IMG/VR virus record: IMGVR_UViG_3300049032_000027
Location: 1 to 33,315 of that record
From: a virus
Reading direction: 5' to 3' (one strand)
DNA length: 33,315 nt
Position numbers and translations under genes: made by a program. Below, in pieces: positions 225 to 33,315 of the stretch (within the stretch, counting starts at the first letter, position 1; the number at the start of each line of letters is the position of its first letter). Under the pieces are notes generated by a model, which had not been told where the DNA came from, did no database searches, and was given only the letters and a program-made list of their open reading frames with translations.

Positions 225-383
225 AGGTTTGCGATCCTGAATGGATACCAACTTGAAGAACGGCGTACTAATTATTCAAAAGTATATCAACAAGAAGCCT
301 CTGAATTTTCGGATAAACTTCCAATCGTTACTCTAAAAGACAAATTCATTTCTGTTAGCGGAAATCTTGAGGATATACTGTGA
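153..383 (+). CDS. Small glutaredoxin/NrdH-like redoxin
   Basis: 76 aa. Has IIVYSPYCLKC (beta strand then CxxC), later KLPIV (cis-Pro position) and SVSG, which is the thioredoxin-fold order seen in NrdH/Grx. The start lies inside the 112-bp repeat. Confidence 0.6.
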   Translation: MNSIIVYSPYCLKCVNKTRWKEIERFAILNGYQLEERRTNYSKVYQQEASEFSDKLPIVTLKDKFISVSGNLEDIL

Positions 384-1036
384 AGTATCCTATTTTACTA
401 CCCTATGTCCATACGCAAGACGACGGCAAAGAATTAAAATATTGTCTTAGAAGCCTGGAGAATATTAAAAACTGGAATGGTAATTTATATATGATAGGAG
501 ATTTGCCTAGCTGGATTAATAAATCCGAAATAAAGCATGTGATTCCCTCTAAGAGAATGACAAATCCTTACTTGGATGTAGCAAATAAAATCTATGAATG
601 TTTCATAAATCCAGAACTTCCCGATAATTTTATTTTCATGAATGATGATATTTACATCACAGAACCTATATCGGTATCGGCTTATAATTCTGGAAATATA
701 CCAGATGTTATTACAGGAATGCACAAATCTTCTCTGTACAGAACAAAGATATGGTTACGAAAAAATGGGTATAACACTTTGAATTATGATACCCATACAC
801 CTATGGTTATTAACAAAGAAAAGTGGCTTAAAATTTACGAAGTAAACAAGTCGAACCAACAATTTATGCAGTGGCGTTCACTATATGGAAATATTAACGG
901 TATTGAATCTGAATTCATGACTGATAAAAAGACTCGAACTAATAAGTTAATGGAAGGTAAAATAATTTCCACGTTATTTTATACGGACGAGTTGAAGAAG
1001 ATGTTCCCTATAGAAAGTAGATTTAAATGCGTATAG
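380..1036 (+). CDS. Stealth CR2-like sugar-phosphotransferase (putative)
   Basis: DDGKELKYCLRSLENI...LYMIGDLPSWIN...FIFMNDDIYI resembles the Stealth CR2 pattern (ELRYSLRSL ... P.WL ... F.Y.NDD). Its start overlaps the upstream stop. Confidence 0.5.
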   Translation: MKYPILLPYVHTQDDGKELKYCLRSLENIKNWNGNLYMIGDLPSWINKSEIKHVIPSKRMTNPYLDVANKIYECFINPELPDNFIFMNDDIYITEPISVSAYNSGNIPDVITGMHKSSLYRTKIWLRKNGYNTLNYDTHTPMVINKEKWLKIYEVNKSNQQFMQWRSLYGNINGIESEFMTDKKTRTNKLMEGKIISTLFYTDELKKMFPIESRFKCV

Positions 1037-1962
1037 CAATTTATGGAAACTTCTCTGTTCCCTATTGTTCAGAAGTTCATTATGCGAACGTACTTTCTAA
1101 AATGGGGCACGAAGTTATAAGACTTCAGGAAAATACAGTGCGCACTAATGCAGCCCTTAGAGTAGGATTACAGTCAAATGTGTTCGTATGGATACACTCT
1201 CATGGATTCATGAACAGAGGGACTTTATCTATGAAGCAAGTTATTCAATCGTTAAAGAATGCTAATATACCAACCGTTGCGTACCATCTCGATCTATACA
1301 TGGGATTAGACAGATGGAAAGAATACGAAAACTCAGACTATTTCAAAGTAGAGCACTTTTTCACAGTGGATAAACTAATGGCAGATTGGTTCAATGAAAA
1401 TACCCAGGTAAAAGGACATTTCTTGCCTGCTGGAGTCTACGATGACGAGGTAATAGCTCTGGAACCACAACGAGTAGACTATGAGGTAGTATTTGTTGGT
1501 GCTAAAAACTACCATAATGATTGGCCTTACCGACCTCAACTTATAGCTTTTCTACGAGACACCTATAAAGACAAATTCTTATTAGTAGGAAGAGATGGAA
1601 TCGGAACAAAACGAGGTTTAGAATTAAACCAAATTTACTCAAATGCAAAAATTGCTATTGGGGATACATTAAATATAGGCTTTAACTACCCTTACTACTC
1701 ATCAGATAGACTATTTGAATCTATAGGCCGTGGAGCTTTTACAATTTACCCACGGATAAAAGGACTCGAAGATTACTACGAAGACGGAAAAGAAATCGTG
1801 TTTTATGAGCATGGAAACCTAGAAGACTTGAAGTACAAAATAGACTACTACCTCACTCACGATGATGAACGTGAAAAAATAAGAAAAGCTGGATTTGAAA
1901 GAACAAAAAAAGAACACCTATATTCTATGAGGTGGGAAGAAATACTGGATAAAGTATGTTAG
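1027..1962 (+). CDS. CgeB-like / GT1-type glycosyltransferase (putative)
   Basis: The C-terminal RLFESIGRGAFTIY...EDGKEIVFYEHGNLEDLKYKIDYYLTHDDEREKIRKAGFERTKKEHLYSMRWEEIL resembles the Glyco_trans_1_2/CgeB C-terminal domain. Confidence 0.55.
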   Translation: MRIAIYGNFSVPYCSEVHYANVLSKMGHEVIRLQENTVRTNAALRVGLQSNVFVWIHSHGFMNRGTLSMKQVIQSLKNANIPTVAYHLDLYMGLDRWKEYENSDYFKVEHFFTVDKLMADWFNENTQVKGHFLPAGVYDDEVIALEPQRVDYEVVFVGAKNYHNDWPYRPQLIAFLRDTYKDKFLLVGRDGIGTKRGLELNQIYSNAKIAIGDTLNIGFNYPYYSSDRLFESIGRGAFTIYPRIKGLEDYYEDGKEIVFYEHGNLEDLKYKIDYYLTHDDEREKIRKAGFERTKKEHLYSMRWEEILDKVC

Positions 1963-2612
1963 ATATTATCACCAGAGAAAATTCGCCAAGCGACCAGAAG
2001 ATAGTCGATGAAATATTCAAAGAGAACGTTTATCGTTTACATGATTATATGTACGAGGACAAGGCAATATTTTTGGATATAGGGGCAAACATCGGAGTAT
2101 TCACTTTATACGCCTTAGAGCGTGCGTACGTTGCCAATAAGAGGATTTGCGTGTATGCGATAGAACCTGAACCTCATAATTTAAACATGTTAAAAAAGAA
2201 TCTTATAAAAAATTCACACCTTCTAGAGAATGATAGCCAAGTTTTTATCTTAGAGTTAGCAGTTGGAGATAGGGAGGACATCGTCACGATTGATAATAAC
2301 CATGGTGGCTCAAGAATAGGGAAAGGAAAAACAAAAGTATCGATGACCACTCTCGATAAAATCCTCAAAATGTACAAAATAGACAAAGTTGACTTCATGA
2401 AAATGGATATAGAAGGGAGTGAAATACCCTCTCTACTAGCAGCCTCCGATGAGACAATCGACAAAATACATTTCTCCGCAATTGAATTTGATGAACAGAA
2501 TGGACTAGATAAATTTTCAAAAGTTATAAATAGATTTGCTCGTAAATGTTCTATTTCCACTTTGGGAGTTCCGTCACGAGGATGTTATTTATATAGTGAA
2601 AGGCACATATGA
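1956..2612 (+). CDS. FkbM-family SAM-dependent methyltransferase
   Basis: FLDIGANIGVFTLYA (SAM-binding G-loop), IEPEPHNLNMLKKNL and FMKMDIEGSE are the typical FkbM/Methyltransf_21 motifs. Confidence 0.8.
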   Translation: MLDIITRENSPSDQKIVDEIFKENVYRLHDYMYEDKAIFLDIGANIGVFTLYALERAYVANKRICVYAIEPEPHNLNMLKKNLIKNSHLLENDSQVFILELAVGDREDIVTIDNNHGGSRIGKGKTKVSMTTLDKILKMYKIDKVDFMKMDIEGSEIPSLLAASDETIDKIHFSAIEFDEQNGLDKFSKVINRFARKCSISTLGVPSRGCYLYSERHI

Positions 2613-3586
2613 GAATAGGATTATTAACGAGACGAGATAATTCTGGTTTAGGATACCAAACGAAAGCACTTTATGAACTGCTAAAACCTACGAGGGTTTT
2701 ATGTATCGACAGCACTCCATTTAATGGACACTCTCAAAATCTCAATTGGTACAAAGATGCAGACTACTTACAGATAACAAACGGATTCCCAACCGATCAT
2801 GATATAGACTTATTTCTAAGAGAATTAGATATTCTTATAACCTGTGAAATACCTTACAACTACACTTTATTCTCACTAGCAAAAGAACGAGGAATAAAAA
2901 CGGTTCTACAGCCAAATGCAGAATTTAACCAGCATTTCTATGGTAAAACACTCCCAAAACCAGATGCCTTTTTCTTACCGAGTAAATGGTATGAGCAAGA
3001 AACAAAAGAATTAGGTATACCAACCTACTATTGTCCACCTCCAACATTCAAAGAACAAAAAAGAAACATAACTAAAGAACAAGGAAAATTAAGAGTCCTC
3101 CATATTGGTGGCAAGAAAGCCTTTCTGGATAGGAATGGAACTGATGATGTTAGTAAAATTAATCTACCAGACGTAGAAATAACCATCTCCCAGCAAGTCA
3201 TGAGCGAGGAAGATAACAATATGGACTTGTATAAGGGAGACTATGATATCGTACTTATCCCAAGAAAGTATGGAGGTTTATGTTTACCAATGAGAGAGTC
3301 TTTAGCCTTTGGGTATCCCGTTATAATGCCGCATATACCTCCAAATAACGATCTATTACCAAAAGAATGGCTATCATCACCAAGTAGAAGAACACAACGA
3401 ATGATGAAACGTCTTATAAATGTGTATGAAAATGATATACAAAGTATAGTAAAAAGACTTGAATACTTCAGAGACATGACAAACGAAGAATACCTAAAAC
3501 AAGTAGAAAAAGCGTATACTATAAATAGACAGATAGAAAGCGATATAAAGTGGGAAGAATATCTAAAGGAGATAGTAGATGAGTAG
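2609..3586 (+). CDS. GT-B fold glycosyltransferase (putative)
   Basis: The N-terminus MRIGLLTRRDNSGLGYQTKAL and the C-terminal GGLCLPMRESLAFGYPVIMP are like the GT4 E-x7-E region. It sits in an operon with the other sugar enzymes. Confidence 0.5.
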   Translation: MRIGLLTRRDNSGLGYQTKALYELLKPTRVLCIDSTPFNGHSQNLNWYKDADYLQITNGFPTDHDIDLFLRELDILITCEIPYNYTLFSLAKERGIKTVLQPNAEFNQHFYGKTLPKPDAFFLPSKWYEQETKELGIPTYYCPPPTFKEQKRNITKEQGKLRVLHIGGKKAFLDRNGTDDVSKINLPDVEITISQQVMSEEDNNMDLYKGDYDIVLIPRKYGGLCLPMRESLAFGYPVIMPHIPPNNDLLPKEWLSSPSRRTQRMMKRLINVYENDIQSIVKRLEYFRDMTNEEYLKQVEKAYTINRQIESDIKWEEYLKEIVDE

Positions 3587-20710: not shown

Positions 20711-21367
20711 ATGAGTAGTCTACAACAATTCAGAGAATGGTCTATATCACAGGGGCAAGTTAGCAACCCAACAACTCAAGTTGTAAACCAATATCCTGGA
20801 CAGTGCGTTTCACTTGTACAGCAGTATCTTGATAGAGTATTCGGAATTCCTTACGCTCCTAGGGGGAACGCCAAAGACTTTGTACCACCTACTTTTAGTA
20901 GAGTCTCGGGAGGTCTTCTTCCAGGTGACATAATCCGCTATGGGAAAAACTATGGTGGGGGATACGGTCACATCGGAATTATTGATGACGATGGAAAGTT
21001 CCTTGATCAAAACGGTACTGTACCACTACGTGTAGGACGTAGGGACCAACCGTTTAATGGCATTGAGAGTGTTTGGCGACCAACAAAAGCCCTCCAAGTA
21101 AAAACTCCGAGCGATCAACGTCGGACAGCGAATGGAATAGCTACTGTAATCACCATGGCATTGAATGTGAGAAGTGAACCCTCAACTTCAGCATCCGTCG
21201 TAGCTACTTACAAACGGGGTGATAGATTTACGTATGATAGTTACATAATTGCTAACGGGTTCGTATGGCTTAGTTACATTGGTAATAGTGGAAACCGACG
21301 TTATGTGGCCGAGGGTCCATATGACGGCAACCGTAACAACATATATGTAACAGGAGGAATAAGTTAA
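20711..21367 (+). CDS. Endolysin: CHAP amidase/peptidase domain plus SH3b cell-wall-binding domain
   Basis: YPGQCVSLVQQYL (catalytic Cys), GYGHIGII (His), and C-terminal NVRSEPSTSASVVATYKRGDRFTYDSYIIANGFVWLSY (SH3b). Confidence 0.85.
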   Translation: MSSLQQFREWSISQGQVSNPTTQVVNQYPGQCVSLVQQYLDRVFGIPYAPRGNAKDFVPPTFSRVSGGLLPGDIIRYGKNYGGGYGHIGIIDDDGKFLDQNGTVPLRVGRRDQPFNGIESVWRPTKALQVKTPSDQRRTANGIATVITMALNVRSEPSTSASVVATYKRGDRFTYDSYIIANGFVWLSYIGNSGNRRYVAEGPYDGNRNNIYVTGGIS

Positions 21368-23083: not shown

Positions 23084-23131
23084 ATAGTATAATAAAAGCA
23101 CAGTAGTTCTTGTTTCGCCAAAACATTAAAT

Positions 23132-23155
23132 AAGCCCCAGAAATGGGGTTTGTTT
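23132..23155. terminator. Hairpin terminator, probably bidirectional
   Basis: AAGCCCCA-gaaa-TGGGGTTT followed by GTTT on the + strand. On the - strand the same stem is followed by CTTATTTAATGTTTT. Confidence 0.7.
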
Positions 23156-23748
23156 AATTAAATGGGTATATTTACTAGTTTATAACTAAAGGTCCTGTAT
23201 GATGCTTTAAATCGTTAATTACGGGTACTTATTCTATCTCTAATGAATAGTTCTAAGTAAATCATTATCCTTTTCATGAAACTACGCTCAATCCTGGCTA
23301 GTTCAATGATATCTAGTATGTCTTTTTCATCCCGTTTCAAGCGGTGTGAAGTTCAACTGGTCATTACTCCATTATAACAGAAACAATTAGACCATCTCCC
23401 CTACTACTTTAGGAGCTAAACAATTCCAAACCCTTAACATCTACTCTCTATCGCTATCAATGCTCACGTACTTCTACGGCTTGCCAGTTGGTTTCTGTCC
23501 CAATAACGATATTAGTCAGTATTAGTACGGAGTAAGAGAGACGAATCGAATATTTAATCAAGGCTCGTCACACCTGTCCGTACTAAGTTTCGGCACGTTC
23601 ACTTCATTTTTCGTCCAGACCATTTTCGCCACTTTGCGAAAATGGTCATTGGGAGGGGCTACTAGTGCTCGGTGCAGTTTTGATTGAAGACAGGTAAGGG
23701 GTAGTGAGTCCAGGATCGTGCAGGAACACGATTCAGCTACTCACTCAC

Positions 23749-23810
23749 GGAGTCGGACTCGAACCGACGACCTCCCATATTGGGTGCTCTACCGACTGAG
23801 CTATCCCCTC
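23749..23810 (-). ncRNA. tRNA-like element: canonical D arm and T arm, truncated anticodon arm, no local acceptor stem
   Basis: The minus strand reads GAGGGGA-TA-GCTC-AGTCGGTA-GAGC-A-CCCAATATGGG-AGGTC-GTCGG-TTCGAGT-CCGAC-TCCGTGA. The anticodon arm is 11 nt instead of 17, and the 3' side pairs with only 3 of the 7 acceptor positions. Confidence 0.6.
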
Positions 23811-24010
23811 TAACCCCATATCCATCCTCAATCCTTGAAGACATGGTGCTAGTAGCAAAGACATGACCTACGTTTAGCCCGACGTATCAAGGCAGGCATA
23901 TGGGAGTCGTCTTACTACCCACTAACTTTCTAACCAATAGGTGGACGTGCTACTTATTACACCAGCTCTTCACGTAGGAGCATTACTACCAGCACAACTA
24001 TCTTCAAGTG

Positions 24011-24040
24011 TTGATTATAGACACTAGAGAGAGGGAGATA
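24011..24040 (-). promoter_or_regulatory. Promoter/operator-like element (minus): TATCTCCCTCTCTCTAGTGTCTATAATCAA
   Basis: Matches 25/30 ungapped positions of the + strand element at 24462-24491. Contains a perfect TATAAT and points into the ncRNA region. Confidence 0.5.
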
Positions 24041-24053
24041 ATTATTTATTTAA

Positions 24054-24440
24054 CTATGCTTTTACTCTATGTTCGGCAAACTCAAGGAGATTAAAATAAA
24101 TCTCAAATTGCCATTGACCTAATTCACCTGTATCGTCGTCAAAATGGTCAAACCACGCCTTAACAACGAACATTCCAGTAGATGATGATAAGTCTCTGTA
24201 GTTTCCTTTTGGAACGTTACGTATTATTGACTTGCCGACACTATTTACCAGTTCAGTAATGGTGTCTTGTAATTTGTACACACTAGGTATTCTATCTCCG
24301 TAATCGTATCCGAGTGACTGAAATAAGGGAGCTGCTTTGATAGCGGCTGCTTCAGTGTATTCGTTTACATAAACGCTTTCCCACCCAAGTGCGTCACAAA
24401 CTATTTCTAAATCGTTCGTAATCTTATCATGAACATCCAT
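24054..24440 (-). CDS. Acidic hypothetical protein (128 aa)
   Basis: GGAG is 5 nt upstream of the ATG on the minus strand. It is one of three minus-strand CDSs called here (with 11874-12086 and 19069-19611) and is flanked by the inverted 30-nt elements. No recognisable motif. Confidence 0.6.
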   Translation of the reverse strand: MDVHDKITNDLEIVCDALGWESVYVNEYTEAAAIKAAPLFQSLGYDYGDRIPSVYKLQDTITELVNSVGKSIIRNVPKGNYRDLSSSTGMFVVKAWFDHFDDDTGELGQWQFEIYFNLLEFAEHRVKA

Positions 24441-24461: not shown

Positions 24462-24491
24462 TATCCCTCTCTCACTAGTATCTATAATCGA
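24462..24491 (+). promoter_or_regulatory. Promoter/operator-like element (plus): TATCCCTCTCTCACTAGTATCTATAATCGA
   Basis: Inverted copy of 24011-24040; TATAAT at 24483-24488 pointing rightwards. Confidence 0.5.
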
Positions 24492-27088: not shown

Positions 27089-27373
27089 ATGAAAAATAGA
27101 AAATGGGCTACTACTGAAGAAGAAAATGGTTGGTTAGTACGTGACGAAAAAGGAAGACCAAGACAATTTATCGGAAGTATAAAAGGTAGATATGGTATAT
27201 GGATGAGAGAATATAGAACGCGTATTCCTGTTAAGGTGTACGAAGAAATAACTACTGACTATGCAATACATGCTGAAGTATGTGCCTGGTGTGAAAATAC
27301 AGATATTGAGTGGGTCGATAATAATGGAAACAATACACCATACTTAATTTCATCGGTAAACAATGGCAAATAA
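27089..27373 (+). CDS. Hypothetical protein
   Basis: I prefer ATG 27089 (TGATATG junction with the upstream stop) to the track start at 27026, which overlaps the previous gene by 62 nt. Confidence 0.45.
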   Translation: MKNRKWATTEEENGWLVRDEKGRPRQFIGSIKGRYGIWMREYRTRIPVKVYEEITTDYAIHAEVCAWCENTDIEWVDNNGNNTPYLISSVNNGK

Positions 27374-27743
27374 AACACTCATTAAAAAACTAGATATCGT
27401 ATTCTCAAAGTATATACGGTTAAGAGACTCTAACAATGGAGTATTTTTGTGTTGCAGCTGTACTCAATATAAACCCTACGAACAAGCAGACGCTGGACAC
27501 TTTATCAATCGCCGCTGGATGGCTACAAGATGGCGAGAAGACAACGTCCATGCACAATGCAGATCATGTAACAGGTTTGATGAAGGAAATGCCGTAGGGT
27601 ATACGATGTTTATGATAAATAAATATGGTAAAGAGCATGTCGAGTATCTGCAGGCTATTAAAAACGGCGGCTATAAGTACAAAGACTACGAAATACAAGT
27701 GTTAATTGAAGAATATAAACAAAAACTATTGCAATTTAAGTAA
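27363..27743 (+). CDS. NinG/Rap-like recombination endonuclease
   Basis: LDIVFSKYIRLRD...CCSC...ADAGHFINRRWMATRWREDNVHAQCRSCNRFDEGN matches the lambda NinG-family pattern. Confidence 0.75.
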   Translation: MANKTLIKKLDIVFSKYIRLRDSNNGVFLCCSCTQYKPYEQADAGHFINRRWMATRWREDNVHAQCRSCNRFDEGNAVGYTMFMINKYGKEHVEYLQAIKNGGYKYKDYEIQVLIEEYKQKLLQFK

Positions 27744-27757
27744 GCATATGCTATATT
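27729..27757 (+). promoter_or_regulatory. Early-type promoter TTGCAA-17-TATATT, spacer AAGCATATGC
   Basis: Read directly. Followed by the conserved leader CCAAGCAATGAAAGG. Confidence 0.7.
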
Positions 27758-27764
27758 AAGAGTA

Positions 27765-28110
27765 CATCCAAGCAATGAAAGGATGAAAGCGACGGGATAA
27801 AGATAGACCCAAGCCAAAAACTCTGACAAGGCAGTCGCTTACAAAATATAAACTCGGTAGCCATTCACCCAGTCGAAAGCCAGTAGAATACGGCTCAGAC
27901 ACTCACGAGGAACTTAGGCTGGATGATTGGCTACTGAGATTAACAATTGAGTGTAGTAGCACAAGTAATAATAGTCCGACGGAGAGTATTACTTCGGGGA
28001 GTTTCTACGGGAACCACCACTCTTAGCAAGTAGTGTGCACACAAAAGCGGAGCAAACAAATACGTATTATTACTGGTACCATACACTCAATTACAAAAAA
28101 AAGGAGACAT
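27765..28110 (+). ncRNA. Structured RNA of about 340 nt (stand-alone ncRNA or long cis-regulatory leader)
   Basis: Nested helices 27853-27862/27929-27938 (one G-U, valid on + only), 27945-27955/28082-28092 and 27964-27973/28065-28074. No ORF of 60 aa or more. Ends about 10 nt before the GGAG of the next gene. Confidence 0.6.
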
Positions 28111-28114
28111 AACA

Positions 28115-28309
28115 ATGTCAAAAACATCAACAAACAAAACACCAAAAACAGTAGAGATTAAACTACTAATTCCTTACGCAATTATTGCAATATTAATCGT
28201 TGCAATTGCAGGACTCATCACAGGATGGTTCGTACACAACAATTACACTCAATCAATGCAGCAGGAATACAATAACGGTGTTGCATCGGTAAAAACATCA
28301 CAGAAGTAA
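28115..28309 (+). CDS. Small membrane-anchor protein, probably the N-terminal part of a split transglycosylase
   Basis: GGAG RBS and TM segment LLIPYAIIAILIVAIAGLITGWFV. The reading frame of the downstream SLT domain is open from 28276. Confidence 0.5.
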   Translation: MSKTSTNKTPKTVEIKLLIPYAIIAILIVAIAGLITGWFVHNNYTQSMQQEYNNGVASVKTSQK

Positions 28310-28431
28310 AGACTGTAGCTTCTGAGAATATAGAAACAGTCAAAGAAGAAATAGCACCTGAAAAAACTCTTACAGACTGTAGAATATCCTATAAGTACAA
28401 CTGGGATAAAAAGATAGCCTATGCAGTATGT

Positions 28432-28659
28432 ATGGCAGAATCTGAAGGCAACCCAAACGCCGCTAACATGAACGATGTTCATAACGGATGTATAGGTAGC
28501 TACGGATTATTCCAGATTGCATGTGTACATGGTGGTATATTTTACGATCCAGAAGAGAACGTAAAAAAGGCTTACGATGTTTACCTATCCCAAGGATGGA
28601 ACGCATGGGGGGCATATTCAAGCGGAGCGTATTTGAGGTATATGAATGTTGAGGTATAA
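28432..28659 (+). CDS. Lytic transglycosylase (SLT/lysozyme-like) domain, apparently lacking its own start
   Basis: AESEGNPNAAN...GSYGLFQI...W is the SLT catalytic region. The domain sequence YNWDKKIAYAVC continues upstream of the ATG in the same frame back to 28276, with no start codon. Confidence 0.6.
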   Translation: MAESEGNPNAANMNDVHNGCIGSYGLFQIACVHGGIFYDPEENVKKAYDVYLSQGWNAWGAYSSGAYLRYMNVEV

Positions 28660-28735: not shown

Positions 28736-28768
28736 ATTCGCCGACTATGCGAGGGTCGGCGAATTTTA
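28736..28768 (+). terminator. Rho-independent terminator
   Basis: ATTCGCCGAC-tatgcgagg-GTCGGCGAAT (10-bp perfect stem) followed by TTTTAAT. Confidence 0.75.
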
Positions 28769-29030: not shown

Positions 29031-29154
29031 ATATGATTACATAATTTCTATATTAGGATTATTAATGATTTTACTGTATACATATTTAATGTTTTTTGCC
29101 CCATGTGAAACAATCAAAATACTAAATTTGTCTGTTCCTGGTAGATGTTTATGA
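29023..29154 (+). CDS. Small membrane protein (43 aa, below the ORF-track cutoff)
   Basis: AGGAG is 5 nt upstream. Sequence MNKYDYIISILGLLMILLYTYLMFFAP...; overlapping stops and starts on both sides. Confidence 0.4.
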   Translation: MNKYDYIISILGLLMILLYTYLMFFAPCETIKILNLSVPGRCL

Positions 29155-29543
29155 CCGATTACGACAAAGAACTAGATGAGATAATCAACGCTATCATCAA
29201 TGCTTGCGAGGCGTCGAGTATTGGCGAAATTACACCTGCACTATTTGAAGAGATGATGGACAGGGCAAAAGAGCTGCACAATGAACTCCTATACCAAGCC
29301 AAACTCGACGGTGCTATTGAGGAGCTGGAAGAGTGCTGGAACCAGGGAGTAAAAAACAACTCATTAGAACTTGAGGACGCATATCTATCAGAGCGGATTG
29401 ATATGTTGAAGAGCATGAGAGAGAACCCACACACTCATGTAATTCGTGGGCATGCGGATGGAAGTGGGCGTCGAAGCTGTGCAGTATGCCGATTTCCAGA
29501 AGACCGTCTCGCCACCCTCAAAGGGCAGAAGGAGAAGCTATGA
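29151..29543 (+). CDS. Coiled-coil protein, paralog A1 (DYDKELD family)
   Basis: Paralogous to 31831-32154 (MxDYDKELD, AKL[DN]GAIEELE, RLAxLK...KL-stop). ATG 29151 matches the paralog's N-terminus. Confidence 0.55.
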   Translation: MTDYDKELDEIINAIINACEASSIGEITPALFEEMMDRAKELHNELLYQAKLDGAIEELEECWNQGVKNNSLELEDAYLSERIDMLKSMRENPHTHVIRGHADGSGRRSCAVCRFPEDRLATLKGQKEKL

Positions 29544-29572
29544 CTGACATTTGGAAGAAGGGGGCTTAAGCG

Positions 29573-29839
29573 ATGACCACCCCACAAGATGAGTTACGAG
29601 AGTATAATATCGATTTCCTCGAATGGTTGGATAAAAACGGAGCAATGGTTTCGGTACTACCTACCGAGAAAGGTTATGCAGCACAGATTGATGACGTAAA
29701 ACTCAAGAGGTCGATAAACCGCCTCATCAACTCCGAAGTACGCCAGGCGATGGATAGGCTTACCGCGATTGGTAGCGTTCAGTACGACATTGAAATATTG
29801 CTATCTGCGATCGAAGCAGAAAGGAAGAATTATGAGTAA
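29573..29839 (+). CDS. Hypothetical protein, paralog B1 (TPQDELRE...SAIEAERKxYE family)
   Basis: Paralogous to 32151-32513. Confidence 0.55.
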   Translation: MTTPQDELREYNIDFLEWLDKNGAMVSVLPTEKGYAAQIDDVKLKRSINRLINSEVRQAMDRLTAIGSVQYDIEILLSAIEAERKNYE

Positions 29840-29966
29840 AAACACAACGATAGCCCTAATGTTATCATCGTATCTTGTATTCATAGCACTGTTATCTATA
29901 ATGGTAAGTCCATGGTTTGTACTACTAATATTACTTACAAGTTCTATTTTGAAGGGGGCAGAATGA
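29832..29966 (+). CDS. Small membrane protein (44 aa), cassette member C1
   Basis: ATG overlaps the upstream stop (TATGAGTAA). It is hydrophobic, and a comparable small TM ORF follows paralog B2. Confidence 0.45.
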   Translation: MSKNTTIALMLSSYLVFIALLSIMVSPWFVLLILLTSSILKGAE

Positions 29967-31686: not shown

Positions 31687-31834
31687 TTTTAAAACGTCTG
31701 TTATTGGTTCAATGCTGGTTATTCTATCCTGTTTACCAACTAATGAACTTATGGAAATACTACTATCGATACTAGGGATTATATACCTAGTGTGGTCAAT
31801 CGTATTGCAGATTAAAGGAGATAGTTTAATATGA
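31676..31834 (+). CDS. Small two-TM membrane protein (52 aa)
   Basis: AAAGGAG RBS upstream, hydrophobic segments, and an ATGA overlap with the next gene. Confidence 0.4.
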   Translation: MNRSFKTSVIGSMLVILSCLPTNELMEILLSILGIIYLVWSIVLQIKGDSLI

Positions 31835-32154
31835 ACGACTACGACAAAGAACTAGATGCTCTATGGGTCGCTATGAACAGGGACGATGACCCCATGGGGA
31901 AACATGACTATAAGCAACGCCTCAAATCCCTCCTGGATAAGGCGTATGAGCATGGTCGCATAAACGAGGCAAAGGCTTGTGAGAAAGCAAGACGCCACGA
32001 CTATAGGACTCTCTTAGCCCAAGCCAAACTCAACGGTGCTATTGAGGAACTGGAGAAGATGGGTGATGTAGAGTTTGAAGAAGTACCAATAGACATTATC
32101 AAATGGAGATACGAGCGTCTCGCCGCCCTAAAAGAAGAAAGGAGTAAGTTGTGA
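31831..32154 (+). CDS. Coiled-coil protein, paralog A2
   Basis: See 29151-29543. Patches of near-identical DNA, e.g. ga(t/c)tacgacaaagaactagatg. Confidence 0.55.
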   Translation: MNDYDKELDALWVAMNRDDDPMGKHDYKQRLKSLLDKAYEHGRINEAKACEKARRHDYRTLLAQAKLNGAIEELEKMGDVEFEEVPIDIIKWRYERLAALKEERSKL

Positions 32155-32513
32155 GCCGTTTTGATGGGATTGACCCCACTACGGGTAAGCCATTGCCTAC
32201 TGAGCATGAGGTAATACAAGCACTGGAAGACTACGCAAAATCGAAGCCACGTTCCACTCCACAAGATGAGTTACGAGAAAGTGTATTGGACACCTCTATA
32301 GCTACTTCGTATTTTTACAGATTTGACAATGAGTTTATTGATAAATTTTTTAATGATGATGGCAAGGCAGCAATCAGAGACTATGTCAACTCAGAAGTAC
32401 GTCAGGTACTGGATAGGCTGGAATCTCAGAGCGATAGAGCAATGACTGGAAAAGGGGGCATTGTTGAAGTCCCAGTATCGGCTATCGAAGCCGAAAGGAA
32501 GAAGTATGAATAA
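32151..32513 (+). CDS. Hypothetical protein, paralog B2
   Basis: GTG start after AAAGGAG. Shares ccacaagatgagttacgaga and the ...SAIEAERKKYE end with B1. Confidence 0.55.
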   Translation: MSRFDGIDPTTGKPLPTEHEVIQALEDYAKSKPRSTPQDELRESVLDTSIATSYFYRFDNEFIDKFFNDDGKAAIRDYVNSEVRQVLDRLESQSDRAMTGKGGIVEVPVSAIEAERKKYE

Positions 32514-32895: not shown

Positions 32896-33124
32896 GTTAT
32901 TGATTGTTTTTTTGTCCGTATACGGTATTTCAAGTCTTCTAGTGGATTATGACGGTCCATTTGGTATATTCTATCGACTACGAAATTTAAATCGATTACG
33001 GAGCGTCCTACGTTGTCAGGTGTGTACAGGTTTTTATCTAGCACTACCGTTTTTACTATTTGTTCCTTTTTATATTGTTTTAGCGGCCTATGGCTTACTT
33101 ATATTGGTAGCTAAGTATGAATAG
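32888..33124 (+). CDS. DUF1360-like small membrane protein
   Basis: DGPFGIFYRLR......LRCQVCTGFYLALPF resembles the DUF1360 pattern. Its last 48 nt lie in the 112-bp repeat. Confidence 0.55.
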   Translation: MFELLIVFLSVYGISSLLVDYDGPFGIFYRLRNLNRLRSVLRCQVCTGFYLALPFLLFVPFYIVLAAYGLLILVAKYE

Positions 33125-33315
33125 TATAATCGTATATTCTCCGTACTGTTTAAAGTGCGTAAATAAAACTAGATGGAAAGAAATTGAAGTTTTAGCGGCC
33201 TATGGCTTACTTATATTGGTAGCTAAGTATGAATAGTATAATCGTATATTCTCCGTACTGTTTAAAGTGCGTAAATAAAACTAGATGGAAAGAAATTGAA
33301 GTTTTAGCGGCCTAT
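33077..33315. repeat. 2.13 copies of the same 112-bp unit (33077-33188, 33189-33300, 33301-33315)
   Basis: Identical to 1-112. 33189-33315 equals 1-127, which closes the circle. Confidence 0.95.

Follow-up and report, generated by a model that had tools for sequence, protein, structure and literature searches.

A chain of four separately folding RNA modules forms the leader of a membrane-anchored transglycosylase gene in an uncultivated phage

The 33,315-nucleotide (nt) stretch of DNA considered here, hereafter the window, is IMG/VR virus record IMGVR_UViG_3300049032_000027, and positions 27765-28114 of its + strand lie between an early promoter and a gene for a membrane-anchored transglycosylase. 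We find that this leader very probably represents a real, conserved and modular + strand RNA. It is a chain of four separately folding modules, denoted A, B, C and D (Table 1), not one fold, and it belongs to an RNA family that is absent from Rfam 15. Judged from the related leaders, A and B constitute the gene-specific core, because no leader is without A and 11 of 13 leader copies have B. C and D are optional cassettes inserted in the A-rich stretch that links B to the ribosome-binding site (RBS), because minimal leaders proceed from A through B to the RBS, and because the site of the window (GGAGACAUAACAAUGUC) is nearly identical to the one that directly follows module B in such a leader, that of locus L085 (GGAGACACUACAAUGUC).

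An earlier note on this DNA, made from its letters alone, had proposed a structured RNA of about 340 nt with three nested helices behind a promoter, and its coordinates and sequences were all exact on re-check. The promoter reads as claimed (TTGCAA at 27729-27734, a 17-nt spacer and TATATT at 27752-27757), with a TG at 27749-27750 that yields an extended -10 element (TGcTATATT). The absence of a real gene also holds, the sole open reading frame (ORF) with a start codon being MKATG-stop at 27783-27800. All three helices are present, CTCGGTAGCC pairing with GGCTACTGAG (helix 1, including one G-U pair, 27856/27935), AATTGAGTGTA with TACACTCAATT (helix 2) and AGTAATAATA with TATTATTACT (helix 3), as are the core motifs GAGAGT (27982), CTTCGG (27992) and ACTCTT (28019). 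Other details were only partly borne out. The palindrome GTGTGCACAC (28033-28042), previously viewed as a possible dimerisation site, exists but, taken alone, is not significant, as about 0.3 such 10-nt palindromes are expected per 346 nt, and it (GUGUGCACAC) sits in the non-conserved interior of module D. The outer helix indeed ends about 10 nt before the GGAG (28103-28106, with the ATG at 28115), but the A8 run (28095-28102), for which the same distance had been given, follows after only 2 nt.

The fold exceeds what is expected by chance. Three perfect 10-nt inverted-repeat pairs occur in the 346 nt, against a shuffle mean of 0.02 and any such pair in just 36 of 2000 shuffles, and the minimum free energy (MFE) of the whole leader is -94.7 kcal/mol, compared to -68.3 +/- 5.0 for shuffled sequences (z = -5.3). 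Folded singly, the modules reach z-scores of -5.0 (C), -3.1 (D) and -3.1 (B). Because the reverse complement folds equally well or better, the folding energy does not identify the strand; analogously, the G27856-U27935 wobble, earlier taken as a strand marker, is present but weak alone, and the strand was instead assigned from relatives.

Relatives of the leader were recovered through a protein search for closer relatives of NinG, the product of the gene upstream (27363-27743), followed by retrieval of their contigs and pattern scans for the conserved core. The resulting 13 leader copies, i.e. the window and 12 loci (L075/L076, L077/L078, L079, L080, L085, L086, whose sequence is that of L093, L087, L091/L092, L094, whose sequence is that of L103, L101 and L102), amount to about 10 distinct sequences, all from uncultivated phages. 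A homologous membrane-anchor gene lies downstream in 13/13 copies and a TG-extended sigma-70 promoter upstream in all of them, the relatives having TTGAC(A/T) or TTGCAT, a spacer of 17-18 nt and a TG-extended -10 box. Other routes gave little: among the IMG/VR relatives of NinG with 60-70% identity (71 loci) no such leader was found 3' of NinG, exact-pattern scans of IMG/VR with a 27-mer of the window and with the L101/L102-type B pattern both returned 0 matches, the module B pattern met genome contigs six times, all by chance within unrelated genomes, and a locus search via the transglycosylase added a single distant locus that was of no help. An apparent 89-nt gap after NinG in the IMG/VR relatives turned out to be a small membrane-peptide ORF. 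For the covariation analysis, alignments were padded with N by hand to fit the structure and pairs were counted in Python, since raw MAFFT and RNAalifold output misaligned the 3' arms.

In the relatives, all three helices are retained via compensatory changes, and these leaders also draw attention to a part that the earlier note had labelled simply as conserved leader (27765-27842): the conservation is confirmed, but the label undervalued it, as hairpin A and domain B are the most conserved part of the family. Hairpin A begins 5-8 nt past the -10 box in 12/12 leaders, coinciding with the predicted transcript start as deduced from the promoter. Its stems vary yet always pair (CAUCC/GGAUG, ACCC/GGGU, UAGCC/GGCUA, CAAUC/GAUUG, AGAUUC/GAAUCU and others), with a compensatory swap of ACCC/GGGU against UAGCC/GGCUA between L087 and L091, while the purine-rich loop usually contains GAAAGG, of which the GG is missing in the L077 and L101 loops. 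The ATG of MKATG abuts this GAAAGG and is therefore the 3' arm of the 5'-terminal hairpin. Hence, the predicted 5' end carries a non-initiating RBS-like stem-loop, in the position of a 5' stabiliser, whose ATG opens just a five-codon ORF.

Module B is paired in 99% of the alignment cells, with double-sided changes in 10 of its 17 pairs across 8 distinct sequences, a result matched by 0 of 500 shuffles, and pairing falls to 38-39% when the partners are shifted by one column. Its two loops are conserved as AUARAGAUAGA or AUGNUUAGAGC and as ..CUCUGAYAA or ..CGCUACAA, respectively. The last three bases of the first can pair with a triplet of the second, the variable pair being A-U in four sequences and C-G in four, and the two loops thus probably touch via a 3-base-pair (bp) pseudoknot. 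These features suggest that B may have an additional specific partner, such as a ligand, a protein or RNA polymerase. Searched against 549 kb of fetched DNA, the covariance model R1, built from B, matched only the 11 leader copies that carry B. The minimal leaders are those of L085, L077/L079, L086 and L101, where B is followed directly by an A-rich linker and this by the RBS. Separately, L086 (11435-11509) and L101 (about 2785-2850) hold an ORF of 21-24 codons with its own RBS between B and the anchor gene, which could be a leader peptide and is not present in the window.

Module C has homologues in L080, L102 and L075 with a common inner block, AGUAGAAU, and its P1 is paired in 39/40 cells, with compensatory changes at 8/10 positions. 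The architecture of module D, that is a frame helix, a GUAG/(A)CCA internal loop and a second helix of 10-13 bp, is shared with L094 (two copies), L060, L104/L105 and a second cassette of the window (24008-23834 on the minus strand), while the frame helix alone is common to D and modules of L087/L091/L092, L075 and L008. Across D-type modules, P1 is paired in 54/55 cells and P2 in 43/43, the latter with compensatory changes at 10/10 positions. Counted in promoter orientation, 11 such modules contain 182 Watson-Crick, 15 G-U and 0 A-C pairs, which points to RNA on the + strand. D-type frames are moreover found upstream of NinG, after a membrane-protein gene and in an untranslated array on the minus strand of the window; since they occur in these other contexts, they cannot be an obligatory sensor for the downstream gene.

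The interiors of these cassettes are exchangeable. Within the same frame helix unrelated sequences are found in L087 (with a GGUUCGAAUCC T-arm) and in the second L094 copy, L094b, and likewise in L060 and L008. P2 of the GUAG/CCA type has an acceptor-stem-like closure with A-CCA after it, exemplified by a U before GCUGGUAG...CUACUAGC-A-CCA in L094b and 24008-23834 (minus strand); (A)CCA follows P2 in D of the window, both L094 copies (L094a and L094b), L060, L104 and 24008-23834. Because interiors swap and P2 closes in this acceptor-like manner, the frame resembles in its behaviour a leader-trailer helix that encloses tRNA-like cargo or acceptor mimics. The cargo of L008 scores 38 bits on the Rfam tRNA model, and a second AUUGAG-framed module on the minus strand of the window encloses a tRNA-like element (23806-23749) of 38.6 bits with a 3-nt anticodon loop. 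Only these two attain the Rfam tRNA threshold; module D of the window does not match that model, and ARAGORN called no tRNA in the window, including 23806-23749, or in 22 loci. The likeness to processing substrates is that of look-alikes only, namely a coaxial helix of about 22 bp for RNase III and an acceptor-like helix followed by A-CCA for RNase P.

Related arrays were noted in passing. An element whose start (GUGAGUGGCGGAAUAGGUAGACGC) resembles the acceptor and D arm of a class II tRNA, and which continues with an insert of 150-200 nt and then the complementary acceptor strand, is present in L085 (2340-2790), L060 (2425-2600) and the L104/L008 arrays, where no tRNA was called. In the window, about 900 nt free of ORFs on the minus strand (23120-24030), downstream of a minus-strand ORF of 128 amino acids (aa), fold at z = -3.6 and include the D-type cassette 24008-23834, the AUUGAG-framed module with the tRNA-like element and a terminator-like site at 23148-23135. 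This is probably a large multi-module non-coding RNA array like those of L060, L104 and L008.

The modular arrangement bears on how the downstream gene could be controlled. The earlier note had considered a riboswitch- or thermosensor-like leader that hides the RBS, which is contradicted by the A8-GGAG region lying outside all helices with an unpaired probability of 0.71-0.91, by the failure to find any alternative pairing of this region with any of the modules, and by C and D being dispensable for the same gene in relatives. Likewise, the three helices of the supposed single fold of about 340 nt reside in C and D and are missing from the L085, L077/L079, L086 and L101 leaders. As an alternative, a stand-alone RNA had been put forward. 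No terminator-like site was found within 27744-28114, the D helix preceding the A8 run and not a U-run, and neither was a terminator found between NinG and the promoter. A separate primary transcript is not supported, as a terminator is lacking between module D and the gene, and separate RNAs could arise only through processing. Since the RBS is predicted to be constitutively open, control would instead act through RNA stability or processing and the frameshift described below, not through occlusion.

Known classes did not account for the RNA. A gathering-threshold scan of the whole window with Rfam 15 and permissive scans of the region and 9 relatives gave only tRNA matches elsewhere, and for 27600-28350, searched to E = 10, only chance-level values of 2.5-3.3 were obtained, so that no family reached its gathering threshold there, be it tRNA, GOLLD, ROOL, YrlA, 6S, a self-cleaving ribozyme or a known leader; seven relatives likewise gave no match. 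A riboswitch was rejected for C and D, which are missing from four minimal leaders of the same gene; in B the fold is conserved but no expression platform or terminator was found. An intrinsic terminator or attenuator was discarded for want of any terminator-like site in 27744-28114, and a late leader akin to lambda PR'-6S/tR' because a terminator is missing and because two further early operons begin with the same promoter cassette. The CUGAYAA of B resembles a hammerhead, however the core G8 is missing and no Rfam ribozyme is matched. A miniature inverted-repeat transposable element was dismissed, neither target-site duplications nor near-identical copies being present in the window or loci, as was a mobile insertion flanked by an AAAGGA direct repeat, the relatives showing A-rich linkers and not duplications. 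Finally, a stop-free frame of 79 codons was examined as gene or pseudogene and set aside, as it has no start codon; searched against 1.84 billion representative proteins, it gave one weak match (E = 3e-5) in four short stretches. Read-through of TGA or an alternative code was not retained for this frame, as the other genes are normal in table 11 and the frame is without homologues.

Table 1. Positions of the promoter, leader modules and associated features in the window
Feature	Position	Strand	Remarks
Sigma-70-type promoter	27729-27757	+	same layout before every related leader
Module A, 5'-terminal hairpin CAUCC/GGAUG, purine-rich loop with GAAAGG	27765-27785	+	
Module B, 54-nt three-way junction	27787-27840	+	MFE fold, covariation
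B P1	27787-27793 / 27834-27840		
B P2	27794-27796 / 27808-27810		loop AUAAAGAUAGA
B P3	27813-27815 / 27830-27832		loop AAAAACUCUGACAA
B candidate 3-bp loop-loop pseudoknot	27805-27807 / 27822-27824		
A-rich single-stranded linker ACAAAAUAUAAA	27841-27852	+	unpaired probability 0.82
Module C, optional hairpin cassette	27853-27938	+	P1 27853-27862 / 27929-27938, helix 1 of the earlier note
Linker AUUAAC	27939-27944	+	UUAACA-type spacer recurs between modules of relatives
Module D, helix-framed cassette, variable branched interior	27945-28092	+	
D P1 (11-bp frame helix)	27945-27955 / 28082-28092		helix 2
D internal loop	GUAGCACA 27956-27963 opposite GGUACCA 28075-28081		CCA at 28079-28081
D P2	27964-27973 / 28065-28074		helix 3
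Unpaired A8, GGAG ribosome-binding site, ATG of the membrane-protein gene	28093-28117	+	
64-aa single-pass membrane protein ORF, 0 frame of the apparently recoded gene	28115-28309	+	
-1 frame ORF without start codon, SLT_3/SLT lytic transglycosylase domain	28276-28659	+	Pfam SLT_3, E = 4e-9
A5 slippery run	28291-28295	+	
Closing hairpin, conserved 11-nt loop CUAUGCGAGGG, scored terminator-like	28736-28764	+	just before the next promoter
Second D-type cassette of the window, other early transcript	23834-24008	-	P2 UGCUGGUAGUAA / UUGCUACUAGCA-CCA, identical to that of L094b

The gene that follows the leader extends over two frames. In all 10 loci compared (window, L085, L087, L092, L094, L077, L086, L075, L101 and L080), the anchor ORF runs into a stop and a muralytic domain follows in the -1 frame without a start codon, the frames overlapping by 19-31 nt (151 nt in L080) with runs such as A_AAA_AAC, U_UUU_UUA and A_AAA_AAA. 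This -1 layout is kept even though the muralytic domain differs, being either SLT_3 or a Cys-rich GCKGLGQDC domain, and sequence comparison points to conserved programmed frameshifting (-1) or to transcriptional slippage rather than to an error of sequencing. The stems of the hairpin that closes the unit covary (GCCGA/UCGGC versus GGCGG/CCGCC), and its CUAUGCGAGGG loop recurs in the RNA arrays of L060 (about 2600-2640), L104 and L008 (about 2460-2490), there with no T-run after it.

We propose that 27765-28114 serves as the 5' leader of a short early unit composed of the promoter, the leader, the anchor/transglycosylase gene and the closing hairpin (28736-28764), the anchor/transglycosylase product arising through -1 frameshifting. 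Module A, and perhaps B, would protect and mark the 5' end of an untranslated leader of about 350 nt against 5'-end-dependent decay, whereas C and D would act as processing cassettes for the double-strand or tRNA-processing RNases of the host (RNase III and RNase P). By such processing, the messenger RNA (mRNA) of a gene with lytic potential would be set apart from transcripts reading through from the recombination operon upstream, and stable small RNAs would be freed as well. We hold this combination of a 5' stabiliser and processing cassettes tentatively, at somewhat less than an even chance, as the comparative data are congruent with it but several points weigh against it. Each of its mechanistic steps is inferred, the family comprises only about 10 distinct leaders and some 11 D-type modules, and the fitting of alignments to the structure by hand inflates the percentages of paired cells, although compensatory changes are still visible in the raw sequences. 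No recognisable B is present in L080 and L075, which have a divergent element in its place, and where B does occur, its loops and pseudoknot resemble a ligand- or protein-binding fold, something a pure stabiliser leaves unexplained. The roughly 22-bp stack of frame and acceptor-like helix is a generic RNase III look-alike only. Furthermore, the CCA may be a mere part of a conserved internal-loop motif, and its recurrence is partly a matter of ascertainment because two of the search patterns required CCA, while the tRNA-like cargo of L087 and L008 is without CCA, has an acceptor stem continuous with the frame helix and is a poor substrate for RNase P or Z.

Part of the same evidence is also what would be expected if D, and perhaps C, were genes for trans-acting small RNAs riding in the leader, i.e. 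helix-framed mimics of the tRNA acceptor arm that are released by processing and serve, for example, as decoys for tRNA-targeting defence nucleases or as substrates for CCA-adding or aminoacylation enzymes. The occurrence of D-type frames in several genomic contexts, their exchangeable and sometimes tRNA-like cargo, the A-CCA end of P2 with a G1:C72-like closure in L094b, L060 and 24008-23834 (minus strand), and the further tRNA-like element without a proper anticodon loop (23749-23806, minus strand) all fit this idea. However, the module interiors are not conserved, so that any trans target would differ from case to case, the modules are devoid of an own promoter or terminator, none of them is called a tRNA by ARAGORN, and searches with Pfam and PHROGs revealed no RNA-modifying or RNA-ligating enzyme encoded in the window; we consider trans-acting RNAs a serious but rather unlikely explanation. 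A bolder version, which we rate as unlikely and slightly more speculative still, envisages a hitherto undescribed cassette system for small RNAs in these uncultivated phages, in which a frame helix of the AUUGAGUG...CACUCAAU type and a GUAG/ACCA junction present swappable cargo that acts in trans on the tRNA-recognising machinery of the host. The cargo would be an anticodon-less tRNA-like RNA or a long acceptor-arm mimic ending in A-CCA, excised from early mRNA leaders by tRNA- or double-stranded-RNA-processing enzymes, for instance as a decoy for anti-phage tRNA nucleases, while B would represent a new regulatory fold, small and pseudoknotted, dedicated to the frameshift-made, membrane-tethered transglycosylase.

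Alternatively, B may be a cis-acting sensor or effector and the real regulator of the operon (an aptamer, an operator for a phage RNA-binding protein or a put-like element), with C and D as passengers. B is strictly tied to the operon, directly after the promoter, its conserved loops, covarying stems and candidate pseudoknot are typical of ligand- or protein-binding folds, and the distance of 0 to 250 nt from B to the RBS would make its action distance-independent, which fits an effect on polymerase or decay. Against this stand the lack of an expression platform, of an alternative pairing of the RBS and of a terminator after B, the absence of any matching Rfam model for riboswitches, ribozymes or leaders in searches extended to E = 10, and the two loci, L080 and L075, that drive the same gene without a recognisable B, leaving such a role fairly improbable. 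Considerably less credence is given to the proposal of the earlier note that the whole fold is one riboswitch- or thermosensor-like leader gating translation of the transglycosylase: in its favour are the length and pronounced structure of the leader and its place directly before the gene, but the RBS and start codon are outside all helices and predicted open, the three helices are missing from minimal leaders of the same gene, and the interiors are not conserved while the modules fold separately and recur elsewhere. Equally remote is a role of the inverted repeats as DNA (a replication origin, recombination hairpins or a miniature transposable element) or a decayed gene. Perfect inverted repeats around variable interiors do resemble small mobile elements, folding is as good on the minus as on the plus strand, and the 79-codon stop-free frame is present; yet the asymmetry of 15 G-U against 0 A-C pairs is not expected of DNA hairpins, a conserved promoter lies directly upstream in the same orientation, target-site duplications and near-identical copies within the genome are lacking, and the frame has neither a start codon nor homologues bar one weak match.

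Comparison with known systems gives partial likenesses for each of the modules. The put RNA of phage HK022 confers processive antitermination through two short stem-loops close to the promoter, and B similarly has two short stem-loops near the promoter, and its effect would not depend on the distance to the gene; unlike put, B has a third helix that closes it, the stretch from B to the gene is free of terminators, and there is no sequence similarity. Phage RNAs processed by RNase III include the early sites of T7 and the lambda N leader, while the C4 RNA of P1/P7 and the M3 RNA of phi80 are RNase P substrates. Phage tRNA arrays and processed leader hairpins share with our leaders the placement of hairpin modules between genes of early transcripts with short A/U-rich spacers, two coaxial helices split by an internal loop, the acceptor-like helix with A-CCA and, in some cases, tRNA-like cargo. 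They differ in that ARAGORN finds no tRNA here, most cargo is without D, anticodon or T arm, and the frame helices are conserved in sequence while the cargo is swapped. Bacterial Y RNAs of the YrlA layout have a long helix, built from the 5' and 3' flanks, that is tipped by a tRNA-like domain, and L087 and L008 are reminiscent of them in that a tRNA-like domain tops a long flank-made helix; however, permissive searches of the window, L087, L094, L008 and L060 gave no Rfam match but one tRNA hit, no Ro/Rsr (TROVE) gene is present among the scanned proteins of the window, and D of the window is without a tRNA-like domain.

Among 5' stabilisers, STAB-SD blocks RNase J1 by means of a non-initiating sequence that resembles an RBS and lies near the 5' end (PMC4113751), and 5'-terminal stem-loops stabilise mRNA according to the references cited in PMC3997798. 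Module A resembles STAB-SD of Bacillus thuringiensis cry3A and the stem-loops of ompA, papA, ermC and aprE in being a stem-loop about 0-2 nt from the predicted start, and STAB-SD in particular in that its GAAAGG has no usable start codon and heads a long untranslated leader. It departs from STAB-SD in that the GAAAGG is partly inside a hairpin and the GG is lost from the L077 and L101 loops, and none of these stabilisers has a counterpart of module B. GOLLD and ROOL are phage-borne, multi-domain RNAs of unknown function that often lie beside or contain tRNA-like elements (PMC12286853). The 600-900-nt multi-module arrays of L060, L104, L008 and 23120-24030 (minus strand) recall them, but give no Rfam match to either and consist of autonomous modules that vary in number and order, with no fixed architecture. 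A large survey has also reported thousands of unnamed candidate phage RNAs, tRNA-like ones included (PMC10690425).

The window itself is a siphovirus-like genome of an uncultivated phage and encodes the small and large terminase as well as structural genes. A CHAP+SH3_5 endolysin (20711-21367), together with strong GGAG ribosome-binding sites, suggests a Gram-positive host, and the early region after the endolysin encodes a Rad52-like protein, a PD-(D/E)XK nuclease and NinG. A contig identical to the window was found in one Logan assembly only; BLASTN against 50,697 phage records returned 0 matches, and no close isolate phage was found. The promoter-plus-leader cassette is present in triplicate in the window (24974, 27742 and 28792), and a real gene uses the GAAAGG box as its RBS in copies 1 and 3. 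Other features of the window were recorded alongside. A 28-nt inverted repeat (24013-24040 and 24462-24489, 86% complementary) flanks the minus-strand 128-aa ORF (24054-24440), which has no match in Pfam or PHROG. A diverged duplication of about 700 nt (29145-29840 and 31830-32513, about 2680 nt apart) covers two early ORFs, with blocks that are 76-96% identical (families D3-D5, D7, D12, D18 and D20). At 33077-33315 a perfect 112-nt tandem repeat, with two full copies and the beginning of a third, runs off the window end; it may consist of true iterons, or a terminal repeat may have given rise to an assembly artefact. Genes for a glycosyltransferase, Stealth-CR2 and an FkbM methyltransferase (380-3586) lie just upstream of the small terminase, which is not the usual cargo of a 33-kb phage.

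The catalogue of structured phage RNAs is poor, and the present analysis defines a covariation-supported family outside Rfam, in which what appeared to be a single ornate fold resolves into interchangeable modules. If the cassettes are indeed processed or act as decoys, they would represent a new route by which phages pack tRNA-mimicking RNAs into mRNA leaders, accompanied by a new small pseudoknotted element linked to the control of a potentially lethal cell-wall enzyme. Also on a conservative reading, the combination of a 5'-end stabiliser, swappable cassettes and a conserved -1 frameshift in one transcription unit of about 900 nt would offer a natural test bed.

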